NCBI GenBank assembly: GCA_963827655.1
Contig: CAWHCF010000041.1
Span: forward strand, 64,001 to 128,000
DNA length: 64,000 nucleotides
Source of the DNA: an uncultured Acidobacteriota bacterium
GTDB taxonomy: Bacteria; Acidobacteriota; UBA6911
Reading direction: 5' to 3'
The notes below the pieces were generated by a model. It saw nothing but the letters and a program-made list of their open reading frames with translations, was not told the origin of the DNA and ran no database searches. The position numbers were made by a program, and so were the translations under genes. Below, piece by piece: positions 16,589-31,200 of the stretch. Position 1 is the stretch's first letter; every line of letters starts with the position of its first letter.

Positions 16589-17533
16589 ATGCAAGCCAAA
16601 CAAGCGATAATCAAGCTTGCTCTGGTTTCAATCCTCTCCGTTCCCCCCTTCTGCACGGTTCAATCCCAGACGCTTCCGGGCCAGACTCCCGTCATCCGCG
16701 TCAACGCGAACCTTGTCTCCGTTCCGGTATCCGTGACAAACAATGCGGGAGAACCAGTTCAGAATCTGCGAGCCGAAGACTTCAGAATCGAAGAAGATGG
16801 AAAGCCCCAGACCATTTCGAACATGGGAGAACCGGGCGAGGCCCGGATGGAGCTGGCTCTGCTGTTCGATGTCTCAGGGAGTCTTTTCCCCAAGTTCGAC
16901 TTCGCCAAGGAGGCGGCCTCACGGTTCCTCCAATCAATTCTTCGGCCCGTGGATGCGGTTTCCATCTACACCATCGGTGCCACGCCGCGACGCGTTCTCG
17001 ACAGGACCATGGGCGCGAAAGCCGCACTGGAGGGCCTGGCAGCGATTAAACCCAGTCGCGAGCAAACGGCCTTCTTCGACGCTGTGATGGCAGCCGCAGG
17101 TTCCGTGGGTCAGGGCGCGGCGCCGGATGCGAGACGCGTGGTCGTGGTCCTCTCGGATGGCGAGGACAACAACAGCGAGTCCAACAGGCTGGCCGGCACG
17201 CTTCAGGCGCTGCAGCGCGCCGACTGCATCCTCTATTCGATAAACCCGAGCGGTCCCTCGATTTGGCTGAACAAGGTCAGTCTCAAGGGGCACGAGGTGT
17301 TGAAGCAGCTGGCTTCTCAAACGGGAGGGTCGGCGTTCCTGCCCGATAAACTGGAGGACCTCGATGCGATATTCACGCGCATCGCGGCCGAGATCAAGGC
17401 CCAGTACCTGCTGGGTTACTATCCTCCCGACAATCCGATGGACGGCTCCTTCCGGCGCATTGCGGTACACGTCCCGAAGAGGCCGGAACTCCTTGTTCGC
17501 GCGCGCCAGGGGTACTACACTTCTAAACCGTGA
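16589..17533 (+). CDS. VWA domain protein (acidobacterial VWFA-related family)
   Basis: IRVNANLVSVPVSV, DVSGS MIDAS, LSDGED, QYLLGYYP and VRARQGY. Confidence 0.9.
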   Translation: MQAKQAIIKLALVSILSVPPFCTVQSQTLPGQTPVIRVNANLVSVPVSVTNNAGEPVQNLRAEDFRIEEDGKPQTISNMGEPGEARMELALLFDVSGSLFPKFDFAKEAASRFLQSILRPVDAVSIYTIGATPRRVLDRTMGAKAALEGLAAIKPSREQTAFFDAVMAAAGSVGQGAAPDARRVVVVLSDGEDNNSESNRLAGTLQALQRADCILYSINPSGPSIWLNKVSLKGHEVLKQLASQTGGSAFLPDKLEDLDAIFTRIAAEIKAQYLLGYYPPDNPMDGSFRRIAVHVPKRPELLVRARQGYYTSKP

Positions 17534-17595
17534 CTCGTGTCCCTGGTGTTTCTTCGTGTAGTCTCATGCTGGTTGAAACCTCTCGAAGCGTCCCT

Positions 17596-18375
17596 ATGAG
17601 CTTCCGCTCTCTATCATCTATCGTCCTATCGCTTGCGTTTCTCGCAGCCGCTGCTCGTGCCGGGACGCAGAATCAAGATCTCGCACCGCGGCCCGATCCG
17701 ACGACTTCACAGGCCGAACCCGGGCTGTCCAGATCGGACGTTATAAGAACCGCCGAAGAGTATAAAGCCAGCCTCGAAAGGTTGATCCCTTTCCAGGAAG
17801 CCTTCATCAAACGTGCCGCAGAAATGGCGGAGAAGCGGGAGATGCTTTTCGCGCAGGGTCTCATCTCGAAAGTCGAACTCGAGCAGAGTCAGGCCGAGCA
17901 AGCGGACGCTAAAGCGAAGCTGGAGGAGACTCTAACGAAGATTTCGGAATCGGCCAACCTCATTGCCGAAGCCAGGCTGGAGGAAGAGCTCGGGCAGGCG
18001 AAACCGCCAGACCCTGACGTGGTAATTCGCTACACAGGCCCTGAAATCTGGTCGCTCTCGAAACTGGTCAACATCGAGAGCTTTTTCGCCGCTCGATTCG
18101 GCCACACGCTGCCTGTGAGCGCTTTTGGTCAGACGGCGCTGCACGACCGCCTGGGTTTCATGCACGGAGAGGCCATCGATATCGCGCTGCACCCCGACAG
18201 TCCGCAAGGCCAGGAGTTGATGAATTACCTGCGCAGCGCCGGTATATCGTTCATCGCCTTTCGCACGGCCGTGCCGGGATCGGCTACAGGCGCGCACATC
18301 CATATAGGAAAGCCGTCGCCCAAAAGCATCGTCGACTCGCGGCGTGTTCGCAACTTCATAAGTAGCACCTCCTGA
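17596..18375 (+). CDS. Secreted coiled-coil protein with a putative M15/Hedgehog-like Zn-peptidase C-domain
   Basis: Signal peptide, coiled coil, then HGEAIDI (HxxxxD-like) and ATGAHIHIG (HxH). Family assignment is inferred. Confidence 0.6.
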   Translation: MSFRSLSSIVLSLAFLAAAARAGTQNQDLAPRPDPTTSQAEPGLSRSDVIRTAEEYKASLERLIPFQEAFIKRAAEMAEKREMLFAQGLISKVELEQSQAEQADAKAKLEETLTKISESANLIAEARLEEELGQAKPPDPDVVIRYTGPEIWSLSKLVNIESFFAARFGHTLPVSAFGQTALHDRLGFMHGEAIDIALHPDSPQGQELMNYLRSAGISFIAFRTAVPGSATGAHIHIGKPSPKSIVDSRRVRNFISSTS

Positions 18376-18497
18376 CGAAGTCCACCCTCCTGAGACCCGC
18401 CCGGCTTCATGAATCGAGTGAGCAAGTCCGTCCTCTGTCACCGTACCAGGAAGCGTCAGGTTCGACTGACTTCGGGCCAGTGCTGATTGCCGATTAC

Positions 18498-19307
18498 CTA
18501 TCTGGATGCGGGCGTGTTCGGAGCTTCGACCAGAATCTTGCCGGTAAGCAGGTAAGCGAGGGTCTGGTTCAGGTCACGCTCATCTGTGGCAGCCAGAACC
18601 AGCCCTCCCGCATCGCGGACCGCGTTGAATCGATCTGCCTTGATATCGAACGCCACGAAATAAATCGAGGCGCGATCCTGTTCGCGCTGCCGGGCGATCG
18701 CTTCCGCGACATCGCCCGGCGAATAACCGCGGGTATTCTGCCCGTCGGTAACGACCAGGATGTGGCGGCGCGAGAGACGGGTCGCGTCCAGGTCGCGCTT
18801 GGCTACGATCATGGCATCGCCGATCGGAGTTCCCCCTTCGGCCTTCAGGCCCTTCAGCGCGGTCTCCGCCGCCCGCAGATCCGGTGGCCCCAGCGGCACG
18901 GATTTCCGGCAGTGCGGCCCTCTATCGCGGGAACTGAATTCGTAGATGCCCAGGCTTATCCGGCGATCTTTGTGCTCGATGGAAAACTTCTCGAACTGAC
19001 GTACCAGCTCCAGGACGGCACGGCGCGCAATCTGGAGTTTAGGCTTCTTTGCTCCGTCGGCATCCTTAACTTTGTCCTTCATGCTTCCCGAAGTGTCCAG
19101 CACAACGATTGCGGCAGTGCCTTCCTGGAATTCGATGTCAGGCGGCAGGCGCAGTTGTTCCTCGACAGGATTTGCCGGCGCCGAGCCGGATCCACCAACC
19201 TGACGGTGGGGCTCGCAACTTGCAGCGAGAAAAGCGCTCAGGGCAACCAGCGCCAGACTCCAACCCGGCCCAGCCAGAGGCTTACTTTTGTTCGGGCGGA
19301 AAGACAC
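18498..19307 (-). CDS. vWA-domain lipoprotein
   Basis: Lipobox-like FLAASC; DTSGSM MIDAS, GGTP and VVTDG; overlaps the upstream gene end. Confidence 0.85.
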   Translation of the reverse strand: MSFRPNKSKPLAGPGWSLALVALSAFLAASCEPHRQVGGSGSAPANPVEEQLRLPPDIEFQEGTAAIVVLDTSGSMKDKVKDADGAKKPKLQIARRAVLELVRQFEKFSIEHKDRRISLGIYEFSSRDRGPHCRKSVPLGPPDLRAAETALKGLKAEGGTPIGDAMIVAKRDLDATRLSRRHILVVTDGQNTRGYSPGDVAEAIARQREQDRASIYFVAFDIKADRFNAVRDAGGLVLAATDERDLNQTLAYLLTGKILVEAPNTPASR

Positions 19308-20988
19308 TGATTTCTACTCGCCGATTCAGAGCGTGATTGGCGGACTCACCGGGATCGGCCGGCTGATCCCACCCTTTCCCCTCGATGGTGAACTTATTGG
19401 GATCGAACTTGAATTTCTCGATCAGAGAGCGCTTGATCGCCTCGGCGCGGGCGAGGCTGAGGTCGCGCACCGCCTGCACTGGAACGCGCCCCTTCATGCT
19501 GGAGTCGGTGTGCCCTTCGATCAGAATGACGGCTCGAGCGAATTGTCCTGCCAGGCGCGCCACCTGCTCGAGCGTCGCGCTTACATTTGGATCATATAGC
19601 TTGCCGGCAACAGTGGAGCCGCTCTCATCGCGCGCAGGCTCGTAAGGGTTCGCCGAATTCGGAAAGAAGTTGATCCGAATGGTCTGGGTCAGGATCGGAG
19701 CTTCTGCGGTGATCTTGCGAAAGCTGGCCGGCGTAAAGGCGGCGACGCTTTCGTCCTTGTGGTGCGCGAACATTCCTTTCTGCTGGATCTTCTGGACGAA
19801 GGTAAAATCCATCACCTGGTCGAACGACGCCGGAGCGTTGATTCGACCCAGCTCGCGATAGACGTAACTTGCGTTCTTCCACGTGCGCTCGAAATTCGTC
19901 GGATTGGAAGCATTCAGGAAAAACTGGATATTTTCCGCCAGGTTAGTCAGGTGCGCGTCGTTGCGCATCTTCATTACGTCTTCGGGTTTCATTCCAAAAG
20001 CATCCGCCATCCAGCGGGCCGCCTCCTCCGGTTTTTCCTTTACCAGATCCATCCCTTCGAAGATCCCGGCAATCAGTCCCTCAACCACCTCGGGATGATC
20101 GCGCACGAAGTCGGCGCGAACTGCGTAAACATCCGCAATCAGCTTGTTGGCGTCAGCCGTACTCGACAGGATGCGCGTCCCGGCAATACGTTCGGGGATA
20201 TTGTAGATATCCGGCGCCCACGAGACGCAGGCGTCCACTTTCTTGTCGGCCACGAATGCGGCCGCGGCTTCGAACGCCGTGGCCGTGTATTTCGGGTTGA
20301 TATCGGCAGGGCGAAGCCCCGCCGAGAGAAGCAGCGAATTCAAGTAGTATTCGCTGGGCGAATTCTGAGCCAGCGTGATGGTCCGCTTGCGCAGATCCGC
20401 GACCGATTTGATGGAGCTGCGCACCACAATCCCATCGCCGCCGTTTGACCAGTCAATCTGCTGAAGGATGCGGGGAGCGGTCCTGGAATCGCGCTGTAAC
20501 TCAGGCGCAAAGAGGGTCATCATGTCCACCGTTCCCCACAGCGTGTGGACCTCGCCGGCGGCGAAAGCATCGCGCGCCGCGACCGGATCGTCCATCAGGA
20601 CCATTTCCAGACGAAACCCGTGTTTCTTGGCAAACACGCTGTCGGGGTTTGGTTTTGTTCCCCGATTGGCCGCAATGACCGGAAGCCAACCGCCCCAGAC
20701 GTTGTAGGAGAAGCGAAGGATCTTCTCGTTCGCATTCCATTTATACTGGCTGACGCCCTTGACGGCGGGCAGACGATCGGCCGGGACGTACTTGTATTCC
20801 TTGACCGTAGTGACTCCCGACGTATCGGGAGCTTCGGTTTGCGGGCCCTCCGCTCCGGGAGTCGCAGCCGAGCGGGGTTGTTGGCTCTTGCGCGCGACGA
20901 TAATCGCGCCGGCCACAATCAACCCCACGATCAGCAGGATCGAAAGAAATTTACCCAAGGTCGTTAACCGGGCTCCTTCATTAGCCAT
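19282..20988 (-). CDS. ABC-type substrate-binding (NMT1/SsuA-like) protein fused to a C-terminal OmpA domain
   Basis: N-terminal TM; DWSNGGDGIV, W.PD and LIADV (PBP type II); EGHTDS..LS..RA..I and NRRVE (OmpA); GAGGAG RBS. Confidence 0.9.
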   Translation of the reverse strand: MANEGARLTTLGKFLSILLIVGLIVAGAIIVARKSQQPRSAATPGAEGPQTEAPDTSGVTTVKEYKYVPADRLPAVKGVSQYKWNANEKILRFSYNVWGGWLPVIAANRGTKPNPDSVFAKKHGFRLEMVLMDDPVAARDAFAAGEVHTLWGTVDMMTLFAPELQRDSRTAPRILQQIDWSNGGDGIVVRSSIKSVADLRKRTITLAQNSPSEYYLNSLLLSAGLRPADINPKYTATAFEAAAAFVADKKVDACVSWAPDIYNIPERIAGTRILSSTADANKLIADVYAVRADFVRDHPEVVEGLIAGIFEGMDLVKEKPEEAARWMADAFGMKPEDVMKMRNDAHLTNLAENIQFFLNASNPTNFERTWKNASYVYRELGRINAPASFDQVMDFTFVQKIQQKGMFAHHKDESVAAFTPASFRKITAEAPILTQTIRINFFPNSANPYEPARDESGSTVAGKLYDPNVSATLEQVARLAGQFARAVILIEGHTDSSMKGRVPVQAVRDLSLARAEAIKRSLIEKFKFDPNKFTIEGKGWDQPADPGESANHALNRRVEISVFPPEQK

Positions 20989-21000
20989 GGTTCTCTCCTC

Positions 21001-21131
21001 GATTGCAGATTTCGGATTGCAGATTGCGGATTCTATCGATCTCGGATTGCGGATTTAAGAACTCGTCAACAATAGAAATCTGCAGGTCTGTCAAGTCCGC
21101 AATCCGCAATCCGCAATCCGCAATCCGCAAT
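21001..21131. repeat. Inverted heptamer arrays (GCGGATT-like / AATCCGC x4)
   Basis: Degenerate GATTGCR units at 21001-21056 face AATCCGC x4 at 21101-21128, forming a long potential hairpin inside the operon. Confidence 0.85.
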
Positions 21132-21133
21132 TG

Positions 21134-21877
21134 TTAGGTCTTCTGGGCAGGGCCAATCTCCTTGGCCGCGGACGGACTCTCAGCCGACGCGGGCGCCTGA
21201 ATTCCCTGGCTCGCCAGAAACTCGGCCAGGGCGGCCTGTTCCAGCGCTTTGCGTTCGTTCTCTTTTTCCTGAACTTTTTCGATATCCACCAGATCTTTGG
21301 CGACACGCGCCTTGCCGGCAGACCTCTCGTAGCGCTTGGCCAGGATCTCTTCCACGCTTTTCATCGTGTCTCCGAGATCGCCCACGCTGAAAGCCGCATT
21401 TCCCAGCGCCGCCGCAGCCTCGGCCTGCGCTTCCTTGATCTGGACCTGCGAAAGCTGTTTTTCGAGTCTGCGCACCTTGTCCCCAAATTCCTTTTGAGCA
21501 AGCTTTGCCTGTCGCAGGTTCGCCTGATAGGCCTCTTCGGTTTCCTGAAGTTCCTGTGTATCGGTGACCAGATCCGCTTTCAGTTCCTGCAACTCTCGGG
21601 CGAGGCTCCCGGCCAGTTCGCTGTTACCTGCCTGATGATTGGCGAGGATTCGCCGCTCGAGTTCCTGGGCCCGGCCGGTTTTCCCCTTCACCTGGTTTTT
21701 CAGGCGTTCGGCGACCCCGGCCATTCGGGCCAGAGCCAGATTGTACTGCACCATCTTGGCGCGAAATTCCTGCCGGGCGGCTTCCATCAAGGCTTCAGGA
21801 TTCCGTTCTTCAATGCCGCTGATAAAGAGGCTCAGGAAGCCTCTAAATAGTGTTCCAATACGAGAAAACAACGCCAT
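21134..21877 (-). CDS. pspA: PspA/IM30 (ESCRT-III superfamily) protein
   Basis: Amphipathic N-helix MALFSRIGTLFRGFLS, E..NPEA.ME.A, long coiled-coil hairpin with G..ELA, and MKSVEE. Confidence 0.88.
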   Translation of the reverse strand: MALFSRIGTLFRGFLSLFISGIEERNPEALMEAARQEFRAKMVQYNLALARMAGVAERLKNQVKGKTGRAQELERRILANHQAGNSELAGSLARELQELKADLVTDTQELQETEEAYQANLRQAKLAQKEFGDKVRRLEKQLSQVQIKEAQAEAAAALGNAAFSVGDLGDTMKSVEEILAKRYERSAGKARVAKDLVDIEKVQEKENERKALEQAALAEFLASQGIQAPASAESPSAAKEIGPAQKT

Positions 21878-22036
21878 TGCGTTCCTCCCCTCGTAGATAG
21901 AAGACCCCGCGGTTCCGGGTGCCAGCCCCATGCGACCGCTACGACTCCGGCGCGTCCTGGAGCGTCTTCTGTGTCTGGCAGATTACACTCGTCTCAGGGA
22001 AAAATTCGGCCCATTGTAAGTCTTTTTGACATAAAA

Positions 22037-22329
22037 GAGCTCGCGCAGAAATAAGTTCGCATTCTGCTGCAGGCCCGAAGGCCAAGCATAGCTGGCGGTA
22101 TGGCGCGAGCGGAAGCTGGGTCGCAGGTAGGCCCGCGTAGGCCGGTAGCGTCAGCGAACGACCGAGGTCAAAGGCCGGCCGGTCGACCTTCGGCGCTCCC
22201 GCAGGCTACCCGACGGGCCTCGCGGCCCTTAGGTGCCAATACTCACCGAGCAGCTAACAGAAAACGAACCGGTTCATAATTGACCAGCGACACTCGCGCC
22301 AGAATGTGAAGTTATTTCTGCGGGAGCCC
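22037..22329 (-). mobile_element. MITE, 293 bp, reverse orientation
   Basis: Ends GAGCTCGCGCAGAAATAAG and GTTATTTCTGCGGGAGCCC; subterminal sequence shared with 40711 and 57201; abuts the TAG of 22329-22973. Confidence 0.8.
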
Positions 22330-22973
22330 TACGGTTCGTCCGCGGTGGTGATTACCGGGCGATCGATGAGATATCCGATCGCCCAGGCCAGGTCCCGCTC
22401 TACGGCAGCCTTCTTCTGCTGCCACTGGCGCCAGTGCTCCTCATCCTGCGCCGCTTCCCTGCGCAAGCCATCGAGTTCTTCCTGGAGTGACCGGACCTGG
22501 GATTCCAGTTCCGACGTTTTTCGGGCGCGCGCGGTGTTGCGCTGTTCCATCTTCCTGGCGGCGAATCCCTCGAATGCATCCAGCGCCTGGTCGCGGGCCA
22601 CAGCATCCCTCACCACCTCCTCGACCGCCACCTTTTCATTCGCCAGGATGTTGAGAATCGCCTTTTGGACCTCCTCCCGATCCTTCGACTTGAATTGCTC
22701 CGTCTTCAGGAGCTGTTTCAGCCGTTCGACCGTCCAGCCATGAGCTGCGGCCTTTACGCCCGCGGTCGCAAAAATCTGCTCGACCGGAACGGAGAGTTCA
22801 GCCGGTAGTTCGGCCAGAGCGCGCACTTCCTCCTGCCGAATCTCGATCAACAGGTCCTTAAGGCTGACAGTTCGGGTCTGGATCTTGGCGGGACGACTCG
22901 GACTCGTGGCCGGCCTCATTTCGACAATTCCGAGGCGATCGCCTACAGCACGCAAGAGGTCGATCAGATTCAT
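22329..22973 (-). CDS. Hypothetical helical/coiled-coil protein of the pspA operon
   Basis: 214-aa ORF with no TM and a C-terminal coiled coil, 19 bp downstream of the AAA gene. Confidence 0.8.
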   Translation of the reverse strand: MNLIDLLRAVGDRLGIVEMRPATSPSRPAKIQTRTVSLKDLLIEIRQEEVRALAELPAELSVPVEQIFATAGVKAAAHGWTVERLKQLLKTEQFKSKDREEVQKAILNILANEKVAVEEVVRDAVARDQALDAFEGFAARKMEQRNTARARKTSELESQVRSLQEELDGLRREAAQDEEHWRQWQQKKAAVERDLAWAIGYLIDRPVITTADEP

Positions 22974-22992
22974 CGATAAACCCGGGACGTCC

Positions 22993-24723
22993 CTAAATAA
23001 ATTTTCTCAACTCACCGATTCGTTGTTCCAGATACTCGGGGGTCAGCTCGCGGTATCGAGGAGGCAGGAACCTCGAATCCGTGCACTCTTTGACCGCGAC
23101 CAAATCCATGTACTCGAGCTTGCGGGTGTGTGCGCTGGGGCGAACCTCGTGGAAGACGTCCGCCAGGATCTCTTTCAGTGATTGGCGCGGCTCGGAGGCC
23201 AGCTCGTACGTCCGCAGGGCGCGAACCAGTACTCCTTCAATCTCGTTGCCGCCCAGCACCACGCTTTCCTTGAGGTCGGGAAGATCCGCCTCGGCCAAGG
23301 GAAACTTCAGCTTGCGGGCAATTGCCAGAAGCAGCGCGCGCATCTCTTCCGGAGTCTCCGGTGGAAAGAGAGGTATGTGCACATCGAGCCTCCCCTGGCG
23401 CTTCAAGTCGACTTCCAGCAGGTCGGGTCTTGAAGTGGCAAAGACCCAGATAATCCTGCCGCGATTTCGCGTGTCCGACATCTCTTTCGCGAGCATGGAA
23501 TAGACCCTGCCCGACAGGCCGCTGTCTCCCTCTCCCCCTTCCCGTTTTCCCGCCGCCTGGTCCGCTTCATCCACAAAAACCACAACCTGGCCCAGGGCGC
23601 GGAGCACCGAGAAAATCTTCTCGAGATTCGACTCCGTAGCCCCTACCCAGCGGTCCCGGAAATTCTTGAAGACCACGCAGGGTATCCCGAGTTCGCCGGC
23701 CCAGCATTGCACCAGGAAGGTCTTGCCGGTTCCGATCCGGCCGGCAATCAGGTATCCCATCGGAAGCGCATGGAGCGCTCCGCGTTTAAGAAGCTGGGTG
23801 TCCTCCCGCAACCAGGCTTTGACCGCATCGTGACCCGCGAGATTGTCCAACGTGAAGGAAGATTCAACGAACTCGAGCAGTCCCTGGCATTCTTTTTCGA
23901 TCATCTCCTTTTTCATGCGAGTCAAGAACGCCGACGTGACGGTTTGGTTCTTCTTGAGAGCGATCGAGAGGACTGTGCGCGCGCCGATCCGGCTCAATCC
24001 GGTCAGGCGACGCGCGAGGTTTTCGATAGGTACTTCGCACTTTGAAGGCAGATCCGGAAACTGCGAAGTCACGAGTATTTGAAGATAGTCGAGCATCTCC
24101 GTCTCGCTCGGCAGCGGAATCTTCAGAACGGCGACATGCGGGTTGTCGACAACCAGATCATTCAGATCGTGCAATCCCTCTGCAAGGAGCACGGTCACGA
24201 TGTTCGACTGGAGAATGGCGGGATCGTTTGCCCAGCTCAGGACTTTGACCACATTGGCGCTGAACGCACCGCCCAGCGCCAGGGGATCGCCGCGCGGAAC
24301 GACGAACTCCGCGAAATCAATCACGATCGCAATCTTGCGTGAAGGCGCCTCGCCTTTGCGAAGAGATTGAAGATTCAAGGTCCGGAGTAAATAGCGATCG
24401 AGGAGCTCAAGAGCAGGCCCCGGGTCACGCGTCTGGCCCAATGTGAATGCCTGTTCACCAAGAGCCTGCTTCAACCACTCCCCCCAGTCCTCGGATCCCC
24501 GGCTTAGGCGTATCCCCTTTCCTCGATCGTAATGCATCACGATTTCGTAGCTTTCGAACATCACCTCGTCCAGGAACGTCTTTAGCGGAACGAGCTTTCT
24601 TCCGGAAGGACCCGGCGCCGGGACAATGTCGAAGAGGTTTCCGTGAATCAAAAACTGAGCGACGGATCCCGATTTGAAGAGGTCGCGCATCTCCTCGGCC
24701 CACGAAGGGAGTTCGGAAGTCAC
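22993..24723 (-). CDS. Classic-clade AAA+ ATPase with degenerate N-terminal AAA-like domain (Ycf46/Vps4-like layout)
   Basis: Walker A GRIGTGKT, pore loop RWVG, Walker B VFVDEAD, sensor ATSRP, Arg finger KRQGRLD; AAGGAG RBS and GTG at 24723. Confidence 0.88.
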   Translation of the reverse strand: MTSELPSWAEEMRDLFKSGSVAQFLIHGNLFDIVPAPGPSGRKLVPLKTFLDEVMFESYEIVMHYDRGKGIRLSRGSEDWGEWLKQALGEQAFTLGQTRDPGPALELLDRYLLRTLNLQSLRKGEAPSRKIAIVIDFAEFVVPRGDPLALGGAFSANVVKVLSWANDPAILQSNIVTVLLAEGLHDLNDLVVDNPHVAVLKIPLPSETEMLDYLQILVTSQFPDLPSKCEVPIENLARRLTGLSRIGARTVLSIALKKNQTVTSAFLTRMKKEMIEKECQGLLEFVESSFTLDNLAGHDAVKAWLREDTQLLKRGALHALPMGYLIAGRIGTGKTFLVQCWAGELGIPCVVFKNFRDRWVGATESNLEKIFSVLRALGQVVVFVDEADQAAGKREGGEGDSGLSGRVYSMLAKEMSDTRNRGRIIWVFATSRPDLLEVDLKRQGRLDVHIPLFPPETPEEMRALLLAIARKLKFPLAEADLPDLKESVVLGGNEIEGVLVRALRTYELASEPRQSLKEILADVFHEVRPSAHTRKLEYMDLVAVKECTDSRFLPPRYRELTPEYLEQRIGELRKFI

Positions 24724-25578
24724 TGGCTCTCCTTGGTCCGCGCCGCTGGTGATTGGGGGCGGCTCCGCGAGCAGATCCTCCATGGCGCCGTAAATCTGCT
24801 GCTGCTCCCTGATCCACTGAGTCGTTCCACCCAGGGTCGTCGTGATCTGATCGATGCGTTCAGAGAGTGTTTCCGGGTCGGTCGACAGAATGGCCTGTTC
24901 GCGAATCAGCTCTACCTGTTCCTGAATCCGGGTCAACTCCGCGTCCAGGAATGCGAGCTTGTCGCGCGCCTCGCTCCTGCGCTCGAGACGCTGTCGTAGA
25001 ATCTCGCTCTGGCTCGACAGACTCTTGCGCAGCTCCTCGGTCAGCGAGTCTTCCTTCAGCCGCGCTTCGAGCTGCCCGATTCTCTCCTTCAAACGCGCCG
25101 AGTCCTCTTCCGCACCGGTTGATTCTCGCACGATCCGTTCAATCGACTGGCGGGTGAGGAGGAGGCGAAGGAAGATCCAGCTCAGACGCCCCAGCCCTTC
25201 TCCCTGCGTATCAATTACGGGCGCTGAGAGCGAACTCCGTGATTGCTGCTCCAGAATCGACCGGCACCGATGTTCGAACAGGCGGTACCGGCCCTGGTCC
25301 GCTTCGCCCAGTTGTCTGATCAGGCTGTTAAGTCTGGCCTGCCAGTCGCCTTGATTCCTGGCCAGCCGCGAGGCTACGACTGTTCGCTGAAAGCGCGGGT
25401 TGGTTGCGAGGAAGCCGAGATAACCCAGTTCAAGTCCCGCGCCGATAAGCCAGAATCCGGGATTCAAGATCCCTAGGAATCCGAAGAGGCCAAGACCGAT
25501 CCAGTTGGGAGCGACAAACATGCCCACCGGACGAGCATTGAAGGCTGCGCGGATGTAATCGCCCAAACCGAGTTTCAT
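24720..25578 (-). CDS. Two-TM membrane protein with long cytoplasmic coiled coil (appears fused to the AAA gene by one indel)
   Basis: Two hydrophobic helices at aa ~20-60 then a coiled coil; the alternative frame ends ARTKESQ* at a GTGA overlap (24720-24723). Confidence 0.75.
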
Positions 25579-26405
25579 GTTCCCTCTGCTGACTGCCTGC
25601 TGCTTTTGTCCACCCGGCGGAAGGCTTCTGTTACCACCGAAACTGCTTTCTTAAAATCAGGCCGTTCCTGTGCCACCAGCGGGGGTATCCCGGCCGAAGG
25701 CGGAATATTGTCTCGAATATCGTAGGCAATCTGGCCTGGCGCGTGACTAAAAATCCAAACCCGTTCGCCAAGGTAGACCGCCTCGGTCACACTATGGGTG
25801 ACGCACAAGATCGTAGGATGTATCCGGTGCCAGAGTTCAACCAGGAGTTCTTGCATCTCAAACCGCGTTGGCTCGTCGAGGGCAGAGAAGGGTTCGTCCA
25901 TGAGAAGAATCTGGGGTTCCATCGCGAGTGAGCGCGCTATGGCAACCCGCTGCTGCTGCCCTCCTGAAAGCTGATGAGGGTACTTGTGCTCATGACCCGA
26001 CAATCCAACCTGTTCGATAAGATTGCTGGCGCGGTCGCGGCGCGCATTTTTGTCCAGATTCATTTCAACTCTATTGATCTCGAGGCCGAAAAGGACATTA
26101 CCCAGCACGGTAAGGTGCGGAAAAGAGCTGTACTGCTGGAAGATCATTCCGCGCTCGCGACCAGGACCCGCTACCGGTTGCCCCTTGATCAGAACCGCGC
26201 CTTCCGTGGGACGCAAAAAGCCTGCAATCAGATTCAAGGCCGTACTCTTGCCGCACCCGGAAGGGCCGATGATTGTAACAAACTCTCCCCGATCCGCCAC
26301 ATCCGGGATTGCAAACGAAAGATCAGTAATTGCGGTAAATGCTCCGAATCGAACCGTTACACTGCGAAACTCCACGATGGGCGCCGGAGATGTATCAGCG
26401 TTCAC
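25575..26405 (-). CDS. ABC transporter ATP-binding protein (SsuB/TauB/NrtD-like)
   Basis: GPSGCGKS, LSGGQQQR, LLMDEPFSALD and VTH; GTGA overlap with the permease. Confidence 0.95.
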   Translation of the reverse strand: MNADTSPAPIVEFRSVTVRFGAFTAITDLSFAIPDVADRGEFVTIIGPSGCGKSTALNLIAGFLRPTEGAVLIKGQPVAGPGRERGMIFQQYSSFPHLTVLGNVLFGLEINRVEMNLDKNARRDRASNLIEQVGLSGHEHKYPHQLSGGQQQRVAIARSLAMEPQILLMDEPFSALDEPTRFEMQELLVELWHRIHPTILCVTHSVTEAVYLGERVWIFSHAPGQIAYDIRDNIPPSAGIPPLVAQERPDFKKAVSVVTEAFRRVDKSSRQSAEGT

Positions 26406-27211
26406 GCGCGGCTCCGCCGGTACGGAAAGAGGCGACTGCCGAGTTGTCCCCAAGCCTGATCGGCAATCCAGGAAATCAGCGAGATCACTATGATCGTGAG
26501 GTAGATGTGTTCTCTCGGGCCGCGCCGTCGCGAAATCTCGATCAAGTAGCCCAGTCCATCGACCAGTACGACGACCTCAGCGAGCACGAGATAGGTCCAG
26601 CCCACGCCGAAGGCCAGGCGCATCGAATGCCAGATGTCGGGCAAGGCAACCGGGACGAGCACCTTTCTGACTATCTGGAAGCGCGAGGCGCCCAGCGTGA
26701 AGGCTGTTCGCAGGTAGACGTCGGGAACGGCATCGATGGCTTTGGCCACAAGTGGCAAGAGGTAGATTCCAAATGCCATGGCCAGGAAAATGATTTTTTG
26801 CAGCTCGCCGGTACCGAACCAGGACATCGTGAGAGGCACCAGCGTCGCAATCGGAACGTACCCGCTCGCGGTCACAACGGGAGTGAACGCCGCGCTCGCG
26901 CTCCCGAAAGCGCCCATCAGAATCCCAAGGGGGAAGACGATCGCCAGGGCAAGGAGGTAACTGAGACCAACACGCTGCAGGCTGGCTCCGATATGGAGCA
27001 GGAGGTTTCTGTCGGTCAGAAGCTCGGGCACGCTCTGAAGAACTTCGCCCGGACTGGGAAGGATCGTGGGTGCTATGCTTCGCTCTTCCGCGGGTCCCAA
27101 GGTCAGGATCCACCACAGCAGAATCAGCAACGCCACCGGTACCGCGCCGAGAAGAATCGCCATGCTGCGGGGAACTTCCCCTCGAACCGCGACAAACCAT
27201 GCAGGTATCAT
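26402..27211 (-). CDS. ABC transporter permease (SsuC/TauC-like)
   Basis: ILPSP.EV, SLQRV, EAA-like loop TAFTLGASRFQI..KV..P.ALP, W..LV.AE and GLG.LI. Confidence 0.93.
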   Translation of the reverse strand: MIPAWFVAVRGEVPRSMAILLGAVPVALLILLWWILTLGPAEERSIAPTILPSPGEVLQSVPELLTDRNLLLHIGASLQRVGLSYLLALAIVFPLGILMGAFGSASAAFTPVVTASGYVPIATLVPLTMSWFGTGELQKIIFLAMAFGIYLLPLVAKAIDAVPDVYLRTAFTLGASRFQIVRKVLVPVALPDIWHSMRLAFGVGWTYLVLAEVVVLVDGLGYLIEISRRRGPREHIYLTIIVISLISWIADQAWGQLGSRLFPYRRSRA

Positions 27212-27652
27212 AGGTTTGACGACCTTACGCAAGTCAGATCCAGCATGTCAATCGTTCTACAACGAACCGTGGCGAGCCGCCCGGCACCCAATTAATTCCG
27301 GTCACGAGATTTCACGGAGCCCGATTGGATTCATGAGAATCGCGGAACCCGCGAGCGCCTGGTTCGTACACTAATCTTGTAATTTTGCATTATTCAATGG
27401 CAATTCTAGACACAATACATAAAGAACAACTGAAACCGAACCGTTGATCTCCGGACCGCATCGCTCAACACCTGACAACAAATACCGCCAAGCTCGACTG
27501 CATCAGTCCAAGTGTAACGTGCCGACGCCTTTTTATTCGGGGCGGAGCCTGGCTGGCGCGGAGGAGCACGCAGCAAGCGTGCGCACTCCAAAGGAGCGCC
27601 TTGGAGTGCGTTCGGCTTGCTTCGCCTCCCGCGACCGCGGTTTGCAAACCTG

Positions 27653-27905
27653 CTACTGAGATGTGGGCTTGATGTTTTGGTTGAGCCGGAAGAAATTCGT
27701 GCCGTCGTACTTTGCCTTGATCTCGAGGAGTCTGCCATAGTTCGAGCCGAAGCTCGCTCGAGTGAGACTGTCCGCGTCGTGCTCTTCAAGACCGAGATAG
27801 TTTAGATAAACTGCGCCGGTCGAGTGCGGCGCGAGGCGGTTCCACGCCTCCCGCACCCACGCGACATGCCGGGGTGTACAAGCTTCTCGGTGATCAGCAG
27901 GCACC
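27653..27905 (-). pseudogene. C-terminal BBE-domain remnant of an FAD-linked oxidase
   Basis: AWVR......APHSTGAVYLNY...FGSNYGRLLEIKAKYDGTNFFRLNQNIKP with no upstream FAD domain. Confidence 0.85.
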
Positions 27906-28231
27906 ACGACTCGGCCAAAGTCCTGCGTCAATCCAGCCGGGAATGTGCGAGCCGATCCCTGGGTCTCGCAACAACATCACTCGCCGCGGTGAGGTTCGCG
28001 ATGATTTCCTTTTGCCTTCGTTTATACCAGCGGATTTGGGGCGAGAAACCGGTCTCATTCGCGACACGTTGGTCGCGTTCCGGTCATGTGGTCTTGACCA
28101 CCGCCTGCGCTTGAATCCGAATCGAGCCAACCATCGGCCCAGTGACTGTTGAGCCTTTCTCCCCGTTATCACTGTTGAAGAAACTTGCTCAAAATTGACA
28201 ATCCAACATTCGGGGGGTGCAGCTTCTCGTC

Positions 28232-31200
28232 CTAATTGGCGGCCGTGTAGATATAGTCATTCGATTGCCATACGCCGCTGATCTTCGACCAGAGTCTCAC
28301 ATAGAGCGTGCTCCCATTGGTCGGCAGGCCGGAAACTGTTACCGACAGGCTTGCTCCTTGGGATTGAGTGTAGACCTCGTAACCTCCAGGGCTCGTCCCT
28401 ATGTACACCCAGTATTCGGATACTCCACTACCGACACTCCACGTGAAGGTGACTACGGAGGAGGTCAGAGTCGATCCGGGCGTCGGGCTCGTCATCTGCG
28501 CCTTAGTCGCGTTACCTCCCGCCGTGTAGATATAGTCATTCGATTGCCATACGCCGCTGATCTTCGACCAGAGTCTCACATAGAACGTGCTCCCATTGGT
28601 CGGCAGGCCGGAAACTGTTACCGACAGGCTTGCTCCTTGGGATTGAGTGTAGAACTCGTAACCTCCAGGGCTCGTCCCTATGTACACCCAGTATTCGGAT
28701 ACTCCACTGCCGACACTCCACGTGAAGGTGACTACGGAGGAGGTCAGAGTCGATCCGGGCGCCGGGCTCGTCATCTGCGCCTTAGCGCGTACCTCCGGAA
28801 GCCGCCGTGTAGGTATAGTCATTCGATTGCCATACGCCGCTGATCTTCGACCAGAGTCTCACATAGAGCGTGCTCCCATTGGTCGACAGGCCGGAAACTG
28901 TTACCGACAGGCTTGCTCCTTGGGATTGAGTGTAGAACTCGTAACCTCCAGGGCTCGTCCCTATGTACACCCAGTATTCGGATACTCCACTACCGACACT
29001 CCACGTGAAGGTGACTACGGAGGAGGTCAGAGTCGATCCGGGCGCCGGGCTCGTCATCTGCGCCTTAGTCGCGTTACCTCCGGAAGCCGCCGTGTAGGTA
29101 TAGTCATTCGATTGCCATACGCCGCTGATCTTCGACCAGAGTCTCACATAGAGCGTGCTCCCATTGCTCGACAGGCCGGAAACTGTTACCGACAGGCTTG
29201 CTCCTTGGGATTGAGTGTAGAACTCGTAACCTCCAGGGCTCGTCCCTATGTACACCCAGTATTCGGATACTCCACTGCCGACACTCCACGTGAAGGTGAC
29301 TACGGAGGAGGTCAGAGTCGATCCGGGCGTCGGGCTCGTCATCTGCGCCTTAGTCGAGTTATCTCCGGGAGCCGCCGTGTAGGTATAGTCATTCGATTGC
29401 CATACGCCGCTGATCTGCGACCAGAGTCTCACATAGAGCGTGCTCCCATTGCTCGACAGGCCGGAAACTGTTACCGACAGGCTTGCTCCTTGGGATTGAG
29501 TGTAGAACTCGTAACCTCCAGGGCTCGTCCCTATCTCCAGCCAGTATTCGGATACTCCACTACCGGCACTCCACGTGAAGCTGACTACGGAGGAGGTCAG
29601 AGTCGATCCGGGCGTCGGGCTCGTCATCTGGGCAGGAGCGGTGGTGCCGGTATTGTGTAGGTAGCCGTAAAGGTGGTGTTGGTAGCAGGAGTGGCAATGT
29701 TGTGGGCGGCCGCTCCTCCATCAGACCAGGAGACGAAAGTCCAGGTCGTGCCATTCACGTTTTGCGGTGAAACGGCTTCGAGATTTCGCATCAGTCCGGC
29801 CACGCCAACGAAGGAAAACGGCGTCGTGACAGGCTGGCCATCGAGCTTCATCTGCAATCCAGGCGGGATGGTTGCCAGACTCACGGTTGAGACGCGCGGG
29901 AGAATGTCCCGGAACGAACTGTGGGTCAGACCGCCCGAATCCTGGACCGTGAGGTGAATACGGTACCAGACATTGGGACTCGTCTCGCCCGTGGTTGGAA
30001 TTACAAAAGAGCCTGTTTGGGATCCTGATGTCGGCGGGACAAAAGGATGGAAATGATTGTCATGATGAAAATCCACTCGCCACGTGAAGGCTGAAGCTGG
30101 AAGGGTACCGTCCTCGGAATCCGTGCCGATGCCGGCGTAGCCGATAGTGTTACCGGCTGTATAGATGGTGCCGGCCGTCGGTTGCGTGATGCTGCCGGTC
30201 GGGGGACTGTTGCCGGTCACGGTGAGGACGGCCTCATTACTTGTGGCGCTTCCGTAGGAGTTGGTAACTACACAGCGGAATAACGCGCCACTATCCGAGA
30301 ACTGGGCCGCGATGGTATAGCTGGACGAACTGGCGCCAGAAATGTTGTTACCGTTCCGCTGCCACTGGTAGTAAAGGGGTTGGGCGCCTGACGCGGTCAC
30401 CGAGAATGTCGCTGGTTGGCCGACAGAGACAGTCTGGCTCGCAGGGTGTCTTGTGATGCCAGGCGTGGGATTGGCAGTATAGTCGATTCTGAAAACACTG
30501 CCCAAGCCGAACGCCAGATAGTACAAACTACCATCAGGCCCTACCTGAAGGTTCAACGGGTAACCAACATCGGTGGCAAACTCGACGACCGAACCGTCGT
30601 TAGGGTCAAGGCGATTTATCCAGCCGTTGCAGAGGTCCGAGAAGAAGTAATTGCCGAGATATTCGGCCGGAAAAGTCGGGAACGAAGGATTATAGAAAAC
30701 GCCGCCGGTAATTGCGCAGCCTGAAGGGGTGCCTCCATGCGAATAGGCAAAAAATGGTGTCCTGTATTGCGATTCATTGGTAGGACCTTCGGTGTCGGGC
30801 CAGCCGTAGTTCGATCCTGCGATGCCGTCGTTGATCTCCTCCCAGGTCTCGTTTCCCACATCGTTGATGAACATTCGCCCGGTGCCGGGCTGGAATGCGA
30901 AGGTAAAGGGATTGCGAAGACCCAGGGCCCAAATCGCCCGATTGTTGCCCGTGGTCGCGGAGTAGAAGGGATTGTCCGCGGGAATAGTGCCGTCTGGATT
31001 CAAGCGGAGTATTTTCCCGAGTAGATTATTCAGCGTCTGGGCGTTGGGCCCGAAGGCATTCTCGCCCACAGCGGCATAGAGCTTCCCGTCGGGACCGAAA
31101 TGAATGGCTCCGCCGTTATGGGCTATGGCGTTGCTCAGGTTGTCCAATTCCAGGATCACGACTTCGCTTCCCGGCACGGCCACATCGCCGGCGGCAGTGA

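Follow-up and report, generated by a model that had tools for sequence, protein, structure and literature searches.

A conserved gene cluster placing PspA beside a Cdc48-related AAA ATPase in an uncultured Acidobacteriota bacterium

Results

The window analysed here is a 64,000-nucleotide (nt) stretch of DNA from an uncultured Acidobacteriota bacterium (assembly GCA_963827655.1, contig CAWHCF010000041.1, positions 64,001 to 128,000), and it carries a gene cluster at 18498-27232 that encodes PspA, a polymer-forming protein of the ESCRT-III superfamily, together with an AAA ATPase, an ATP-binding cassette (ABC) transporter and further membrane and envelope proteins. All genes of the cluster are co-oriented on the minus strand, as read from open reading frames (ORFs) and from Pfam and NCBIfam scans (Table 1). 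An initial annotation, made from the sequence alone, had listed a permease, an ABC ATPase, a protein with two transmembrane helices (2-TM), an AAA ATPase, a coiled-coil protein, PspA, a protein combining a transmembrane (TM) segment with a solute-binding (SBP) and an OmpA domain, and a vWA lipoprotein, and our scans bear out this gene content.

Table 1. Positions of the genes and other features of the PspA-AAA cluster in the window (aa, amino acids; E, expect value).
Feature	Position	Strand	Basis or remark
Permease, TauC/SsuC/SaoP-like	26402-27232	minus	BPD_transp_1 E 8.1e-17; NCBIfam SaoP 5.5e-35, TauC 5.9e-31
ABC ATPase, TauB/SsuB-like	25575-26405 (longest ORF to 26453)	minus	ABC_tran E 1.6e-33; TauB-type NCBIfam 3.4e-62
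2-TM helical membrane protein, ~283 aa	24720-25578	minus	ORF translation, AlphaFold2 model
861-aa frame: 2-TM protein (first 283 residues) and AAA ATPase (last 576)	22993-25578	minus	
AAA ATPase, 576 aa from GTG 24723	22993-24723	minus	PF00004 E 3.4e-23
214-aa cytoplasmic helical protein	22329-22973	minus	no Pfam or NCBIfam family
Dispersed repeat, 288 nt, resembling a miniature inverted-repeat transposable element	22041-22328	none	between the 214-aa gene and pspA
PspA/IM30, 247 aa, most likely from ATG 21877	21134-21877 (longest ORF to 21931)	minus	PF04012
TM-SBP-OmpA protein	19282-20988	minus	OmpA E 7.9e-11; NMT1 4e-9; SsuA_fam 1.2e-18
vWA-domain lipoprotein	18498-19307	minus	VWA_2 E 5.5e-11; metal-ion-dependent adhesion site DTSGS (DxSxS)

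The permease stop and the ABC ATPase start overlap as GTGA at 26402-26405, the ABC ATPase stop and the 2-TM start overlap as ATGA at 25575-25578, and the SBP-OmpA and vWA genes overlap by 26 nt, so that the tight coupling through ATGA and GTGA overlaps claimed earlier is confirmed at junctions read from the DNA. The longest ORF of the permease opens at TTG 27232, with an alternative ATG start at 27211, that of the ABC ATPase opens at TTG 26453, with a probable start at GTG 26405, and the most likely start of PspA has GGAGG upstream and gives MALFSRIG.... A promoter scan of the cluster found no sigma-70-like sites and no sigma-54 motif inside it, terminator-like sites occurred there only at chance level, and an Rfam scan of 17500-29000 returned one sub-threshold chance match only.

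A gap of 450 nt precedes pspA, 288 nt of which are a repeat insertion. The repeat, whose ends are conserved and whose middle varies, matches 77 other places in the genome, and contigs of the DNA runs X1 and X3 and of the RNA run X15 join 22040 directly to 22329 without it; it is not part of the PspA-AAA system. A second short repeat was observed at 21033-21100, in the spacer between pspA and the SBP-OmpA gene, where the summed contig depth came to ~7800 in one run, many contigs carry other sequence, and many loose ends fall at 21100 and 21131-21133.

As assembled, the cluster comprises seven ORFs, since the 2-TM protein and the AAA ATPase share one 861-aa frame, and to this extent the eight-gene operon of the initial annotation does not hold. 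The GTGA at 24720-24723 is present in the window, but its TGA is out of frame with the 2-TM protein. Shifted by one frame, the window also encodes ...TKESQ-stop, with its TGA at 24720-24722 within the GTGA; 2-TM proteins of close relatives end in ...K-x-S-Q-stop, and this TGA is the ancestral stop of the 2-TM gene. The GTG within the same GTGA is the AAA start, with AAGGAG six bases upstream, and the source annotation calls the ATPase gene at 576 aa (P0001). In all 16 close relatives compared (AAA part 73-79% identical) the 2-TM protein and the AAA are separate genes: four have them in frame with an intervening stop, 12 as separate matches, and in each of the seven of those 12 that were checked the two lie in different frames. 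Contigs of the DNA runs X1, X2 and X3, which come from three soil or rhizosphere studies and are ~97-99% identical over 24269-25386, each carry two extra bases at 24738/24739 that restore exactly the TKESQ stop, and none of them contains the fused form. Nor was a natural 2-TM-AAA fusion found among the 120 best database homologues, none of which covers more than 69% of the 861-aa frame.

Because relatives, contigs, unfused homologues and the 576-aa gene call agree, the eight-gene reading is the biologically likely one, with two genes that probably meet in a GTGA overlap; for the relatives and the near-identical contigs the earlier gene count thus stands. The fusion in the window is either an assembly error or a private 2-base deletion. 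Were it real, the motor would be covalently tethered to its presumed anchor. The 2-base shortfall at 24738-24740 may be an assembly error, and in that case other frames in this genome could be affected likewise.

The cluster very probably belongs to an operon type described by Ravi et al. 2024 (mSystems 9:e00847-23; PMC11237479), in which PspA is encoded with a two-module AAA ATPase whose first module is inactive and with a membrane-anchored "divergent Snf7" protein ('SIG+TM+Snf7'); longer operons of this type add an ABC ATPase, a permease and a 'SIG+PBPB+OmpA' protein, as exemplified by OGG56892.1 from Candidatus Handelsmanbacteria. The type rests on genome comparison, and its authors proposed ATP-dependent membrane remodelling like that of Snf7 and Vps4, linked to solute transport (PMC11237479). 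As far as that description was compared, the window shares the same six protein types: PspA adjoins an AAA with an inactive N-terminal and an apparently active C-terminal classical module, and a membrane-anchored helical protein stands at the expected place. The window differs in its gene order and in two further genes, for the 214-aa protein and the vWA protein, the latter of which is not named in the part of the published description compared (PMC11237479).

Conservation of the gene set was assessed with an AAA-alignment search over one genome per species, which kept 80 loci, 45 of them with at least 6 kb on both flanks; partners were counted by tblastn on the same strand in these 45 full-context loci. 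The gene set recurs in other genomes, as the reading of the initial annotation implied, and it does so far beyond chance. Half of the loci from relatives (10 of 20) have the full eight-gene set in the window's order, and several others are cut by contig ends. Across the full-context loci, PspA lies beside the AAA in 43 (41 by tblastn and two by a PspA hidden Markov model), the 2-TM protein in 41, an OmpA-type protein with or without the SBP domain in 40, the ABC ATPase in 28, the permease in 27, vWA homologues in 22 and the 214-aa protein in nine.

The set is kept through at least five gene orders. The commonest (11 of 45) is the published one of PspA, SBP-OmpA, permease, ABC ATPase, TM protein and AAA, seen also in G032, of the same class as the window. 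Six loci have the window's full eight-gene order, L044 being a seventh without a vWA match, and two have a cyclic permutation of it. An ABC-less form (TM protein, AAA, PspA, OmpA protein, with or without vWA) makes up 13 loci, and in a verrucomicrobial order PspA lies between the TM protein and the AAA. Bare pspA-AAA pairs without a 2-TM gene occur at L081, L095 and L099. The AAA and PspA make up the constant core, to which most loci add a 2-TM gene in translational coupling with the AAA. Linkage that survives so much gene shuffling is good evidence of joint function.

By record title, the AAA loci belong to Acidobacteriota, Gemmatimonadota, Planctomycetota, Verrucomicrobiota, Eisenbacteria and proteobacterial metagenome-assembled genomes. 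Within the window's phylum the distribution is patchy, since 57 of the 401 genomes sampled, in 47 of 228 genera, contain the family-specific N-terminal module (N-module) of the ATPase. There is a hint that closed genomes of the phylum, possibly of cultured isolates, carry the ATPase family.

Eight loci from Planctomycetota and Gemmatimonadota records (L035, L037, L039, L043, L044, L086, L089 and L096) encode AAA proteins 69-75% identical to the window's and about as close to it as many Acidobacteriota ones. They share the window's partners, several in the window's order and L037 and L039 in cyclic permutation, and such similarity across phyla suggests either horizontal transfer of the whole cluster or mis-binned contigs. 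A different arrangement was seen at L017 (G007:C691), which has the 2-TM gene, the AAA, two tandem PspA copies and a stray copy of the AAA's last 60 residues, without ABC, SBP-OmpA, vWA or 214-aa genes nearby.

The AAA ATPase is built from a degenerate N-terminal AAA-like module, a classical AAA module that looks active from its motifs, and a conserved, family-specific C-terminal extension (AVKECTDxRFLP...). All features of the classical AAA clade (PF00004) are present, namely Walker A (GRIGTGKT in the window), Walker B (VDEAD), pore loop 1 (RWVG) and a second region of homology with two arginines (KRQGR), in agreement with the earlier description of a classic-clade ATPase with an aromatic pore loop and an intact arginine finger. 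Walker A GxxGTGK[TS], Walker B hhhhDE and KRxGR are each kept in 43 of 43 family sequences, and the pore-loop residue is aromatic in 41 of them (W in 32, Y in nine) and L in two. Within the N-terminal ~290 residues, LHGN stands at the place of the P-loop in the window, GxxGxGK occurs in none of the 43 sequences, and the N-module profile matches AAA proteins only. These matches are weak (best E 3.5e-4), and the alignment spans the Walker-B strand through the lid.

The best PDB match of the AAA is VAT/Cdc48 D2 (E 1.6e-35); Vps4 is not among the best 60 PDB matches of the whole protein, which reach E 1.5e-17. NCBIfam scores run from 65.3 bits for CDC48 and 59.3 for FtsH to 46 for PAN and 34.4 for CdvC. 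Pfam and NCBIfam gave no MIT domain match in the AAA, and the same scans found no protease domain or partner in the cluster. Without an MIT domain the AAA is not a Vps4 orthologue, and its architecture is not Vps4-like; the likeness to Vps4 drawn in the initial annotation does not extend to the build of the ATPase, with its two modules and its best matches to Cdc48/VAT D2. As a classical-clade motor with intact pore loops, whose closest solved relatives VAT and Cdc48 are substrate-threading unfoldases, the AAA likely threads polypeptides.

PspA matches PF04012 by a thin margin (34.9 bits against a cut-off of 33.9), with residues 21-236 covering profile positions 2-212 of 220, and a search of the genome (90% complete) returned no PF04012 match besides this one, which scored 35.1 bits there. 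Its N-terminus, MALFSRIGTLFRGFLSLFISGIE, has the pattern of the amphipathic helix alpha0 as judged by eye, and the alignment keeps this pattern in all 29 operon-linked PspAs. The C-terminal tail of the window's PspA is Pro/Ala-rich and ends in KEIGP. Throughout the 29 operon-linked PspAs, at identities down to 20%, a near-invariant C-terminal K-x-h-G-P follows a Pro/Ala-rich flexible linker, and this tail is a candidate handle for the AAA motor. A complex prediction of the full-length AAA with PspA scored 0.01 and 0.28, against a mark of 0.32, and weighs on neither side of the question of binding. In a related genome without the AAA cluster (G022:C200, L114-L116), three PspA paralogues stand in tandem, beside ORFs that resemble, by eye from their translations, an NfeD-type membrane protein and a flotillin/band-7 protein.

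The AlphaFold2 model of the 2-TM protein (predicted local distance difference test, pLDDT, 88.4; predicted template modelling score 0.79) is all helical, with an N-terminal amphipathic helix, a TM hairpin, a cytoplasmic helical bundle and a Pro-rich tail. We did not reproduce the published "divergent Snf7" label for the TM protein, and this outcome is inconclusive, not a rejection. The Snf7 family PF03357 had no match in 37 members of the 2-TM family at E up to 1 and none at the locus in a genome search at E up to 10, a search of little power because the control fell below the cut-off even in Sulfolobus. A genome search with PF25587 gave nothing specific for the 2-TM protein, and a PDB sequence profile search with its family gave nothing specific to Snf7 or PspA. 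Alignment of the family to the operon PspA profile with hhalign reached a probability of 4.7%, and fold searches gave generic helical matches (Foldseek best E 0.25, Vipp1 at E 1.6; VIA-align best Z 8.7). The nearest named ESM Atlas cluster is the Rv2743c (PspM) family, with a score of 0.86 and 180 shared features. Rv2743c/PspM is the mycobacterial membrane partner of PspA; its Pfam profile had no match at the locus, and the likeness is a lead only. Fragments of a 2-TM gene were observed in a genome of the window's family (G003:C11:184521-184940; 83% identity over residues 179-277, 67% over 6-51) with no close AAA match reported beside them, and are perhaps the remnant of a lost cluster.

The 214-aa protein is modelled as a small helical domain followed by one ~84-residue helix (pLDDT 76.6). 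Fold searches gave a best Foldseek E of 2.2 and a best VIA-align Z of 6.4, with coiled-coil rows only and the N-terminal half barely tested; hhalign found nothing against PspA, and the ESM Atlas gave unnamed clusters only. Thirty homologues stand beside the AAA at other loci, only in window-type operons, and two distant loci have a similar-sized protein of 18-20% identity at the place of the 214-aa gene.

On the transporter side, the ABC ATPase translation contains Walker A GPSGCGKS, the signature LSGGQ and Walker B LLMDEP, and the permease is 59-77% identical in relatives. Permease, ATPase and binding domain all fall in type-I importer families, the binding domain being of the SsuA/TauA/NrtA type. 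All three parts score below the curated cut-offs of the named equivalogs (e.g. TauB 210 vs 357 bits), so the solute cannot be named. The SBP-OmpA protein joins an N-terminal TM helix and the binding domain to a C-terminal OmpA-like peptidoglycan-binding domain (PDB matches Omp38 2.1e-9, SsuA 9.8e-9, TauA 7.7e-5, NrtA 1e-3), and the vWA protein has a signal peptide, ...FLAASC, in which a Cys follows the hydrophobic N-terminal stretch. Where the ABC genes are missing, PspA still has a related TM-...-OmpA protein as its neighbour. These ABC-less loci (L036:14378-15853 and others) also encode a flavin amine oxidase that carries a Tat-like signal, placed after the TM-...-OmpA gene and before that of the vWA lipoprotein. 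Ravi et al. 2024 tie other PspA operons to polyamine metabolism (PMC11237479), and taken together with this oxidase the link makes an amine a possible shared cue in the periplasm.

Contigs from one soil RNA library match the vWA, SBP-OmpA, pspA and 214-aa genes and parts of the AAA at 93-99% identity, a weak hint of expression in a near relative, with DNA carry-over possible. In the RNA run X15, most of 24922-27232 has no contig cover, which as contig data is not evidence of absence.

Discussion

Vps4 remodels and recycles ESCRT-III polymers. How the bacterial polymers of the ESCRT-III family, PspA and Vipp1, are dismantled and reused is a standing question, and the operon type analysed here is the most direct candidate for a bacterial PspA disassembly ATPase. 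The Vps4-like idea of the initial annotation is not new and was already in print (Ravi et al. 2024; PMC11237479), and the value of the locus lies in the operon type published in 2024, to which the window adds its gene order, the recurrent vWA and 214-aa partners, and a conserved PspA tail as a candidate recognition site. The question can be reduced to two purified proteins, the AAA and PspA.

We give about even weight to the proposal that the AAA acts on PspA as a disassembly or remodelling motor. The 2-TM helical protein would hold the AAA hexamer at the inner membrane, a role suggested by the translational coupling of the two genes almost everywhere. PspA would polymerise on stressed membrane through its amphipathic N-terminal helix, and the AAA would engage a PspA subunit, plausibly by the exposed Pro/Ala-rich C-terminal tail, thread it through the aromatic pore loops and extract it, such that the polymers would be remodelled or recycled as Vps4 does with ESCRT-III. 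The binding protein, tethered to the inner membrane and to peptidoglycan, the ABC transporter and the vWA lipoprotein would form the periplasmic side, which may either bring in a solute connected with envelope stress or signal the condition of the periplasm. The analysis shows the gene content, intact catalytic motifs and a linkage kept across phyla and gene orders; we infer all physical contacts between the proteins, disassembly as the direction in which the AAA acts, and any signalling, and for the contact between AAA and PspA, the recruitment of PspA by the 2-TM protein and sensing by the ABC, SBP and vWA components the basis is gene linkage.

[quoted passage not shown] However, Vps4 has one AAA module and an MIT domain, whereas the window's ATPase has two modules, the first degenerate, and is nearer in sequence to Cdc48/VAT and FtsH than to CdvC; nor do the ESCRT-III/Vps4 systems have a counterpart of the periplasmic, peptidoglycan-bound and ABC components. 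With Cdc48/VAT/p97 it shares the best sequence matches, the two-module build and an N-module profile that aligns to Cdc48/p97 modules, but its first module has lost the P-loop (LHGN for GxxGxGK), the double-psi barrel N-domain is absent and the C-terminal extension is its own. A PspA effector with an adjoining small membrane partner also recalls the Psp and Lia systems (E. coli pspFABCDE, B. subtilis liaIH, M. tuberculosis clgR-pspAMN), from which the cluster differs in lacking a PspF- or Lia-type regulator. The absence of pspB, pspC, pspF and liaFSR stated in the initial annotation holds for the cluster (Pfam and NCBIfam scans) and, for the PspB and PspC profiles, also for the whole genome, which is 90% complete, no genome-wide search having been made for pspF and liaFSR.

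Several observations weigh against a PspA-directed, Vps4-like motor. At L069 and L071, two of the 45 full-context loci, no PspA lies within 10 kb, and in L030 and L031 (from G030 and G027), two of the 43 AAA sequences, Leu replaces the pore-loop aromatic. The AAA has neither the MIT domain nor the single-module build of Vps4, and its closest-family signal points elsewhere, so any Vps4-like role would be convergent. PspAs unlinked to an AAA in two related genomes end in ...LKKEMGE and ...KKKIGDSNG, and since these ends are similar the K..G motif of the tail may be common to PspA proteins at large. ABC genes are missing from about a third of the loci, and the core can therefore do without the transporter. 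According to a 2025 review, bacteria appear to have no Vps4-like ATPase, and both PspA and Vipp1 reportedly assemble and come apart with no AAA dedicated to the task (PMC7619361). Full-text literature searches found no experimental study of the operon type, and as far as these searches reach they agree with the initial annotation, which knew of no functional characterisation.

Other readings of the cluster keep the AAA and PspA together but assign them different tasks. The AAA could be an extraction or quality-control motor for membrane proteins in the manner of Cdc48, Msp1 or FtsH, acting on the 2-TM helical protein or on other damaged membrane proteins, with PspA only sealing or stabilising the bilayer meanwhile. 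That its closest solved relatives are Cdc48 and VAT, that FtsH is its second-best NCBIfam match, and that the 2-TM gene followed by the AAA is the tightest and most constant adjacency, with a start/stop overlap, all fit such a motor; however, PspA accompanies the AAA no less constantly than the 2-TM protein does (43 vs 41 of 45), the bare pspA-AAA pairs do without a 2-TM gene, and the cluster has no protease domain or partner. We consider this reading unlikely. PspA might instead regulate the AAA, its release onto damaged membrane switching on an ATPase that acts on something else, e.g. the transporter. For this there is the strict co-location of the two genes and a precedent in E. coli, where PspA is established to bind and inhibit the AAA+ activator PspF (PMC7619361), but PspF is an NtrC-type AAA+ protein with a DNA-binding domain, whereas the window's ATPase is of the classical-clade unfoldase type, with pore loops and without a helix-turn-helix, and we regard regulation of this kind as very unlikely.

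It is also conceivable, though quite unlikely, that the cluster joins two independent modules by chance, one an ordinary ABC importer of the sulfonate/taurine/nitrate type with its binding protein, the other a PspA-AAA stress module of its own. The transporter parts do belong to ordinary importer families with intact motifs, 17 of the 45 full-context loci have no ABC ATPase nearby, and the 450-nt gap splits the window's cluster before pspA. Of that gap, however, 288 nt are a recent repeat insertion, missing in near-identical strains, and in 28 of 45 loci the ABC and SBP-OmpA genes have remained beside PspA and the AAA despite several rearrangements and in different phyla. The binding protein is also unusual for an importer, since it starts with a TM anchor and ends with an OmpA domain that binds peptidoglycan, and the TM-...-OmpA protein is kept beside PspA even in ABC-less loci. 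An anti-phage defence system built round an IetA/IteA-like AAA ATPase seems extremely improbable. The AAA module does score against PADLOC IetA (best E 2.7e-11) and NCBIfam IteA (7.3e-8), but these matches are generic for an AAA module and far weaker than those to Cdc48 and FtsH, and the IetS protease partner is absent from the cluster. The other PADLOC matches are generic ABC ones (mad3 1.6e-30, mad8 1.5e-8, a marginal AriA) or marginal (TerY to the vWA protein, LmuB), no complete PADLOC anti-phage defence system was found in the cluster, and the cluster is chromosomal, conserved in order within the family and not island-like.

Returning to PspA disassembly, a bolder version, which we consider possible but doubtful, is that bacteria in several diderm phyla possess a functioning equivalent of the ESCRT-III/Vps4 pair whose origin is independent of Vps4. 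A Cdc48-derived tandem AAA unfoldase, kept at the inner membrane by a dedicated 2-TM helical protein, would recognise the near-invariant K-x-h-G-P tail of its own PspA, which would play the part of the MIT-interacting motif, and would strip subunits from PspA polymers. A peptidoglycan-tethered binding protein and ABC module, coupled to this machinery, would report periplasmic damage. If true, this would overturn the statement that bacteria lack an ESCRT-III disassembly ATPase.

Outside the cluster, the minus strand at 28232-29627 holds two ORFs of near-identical ~95-residue repeats (…TSPTPGSTLTSSVVTFTWS.GSGVSEYW.YIGTSPGGYE.YTQSQG…), which are mirrored by long plus-strand ORFs and have only a sub-threshold DUF3823_C match.

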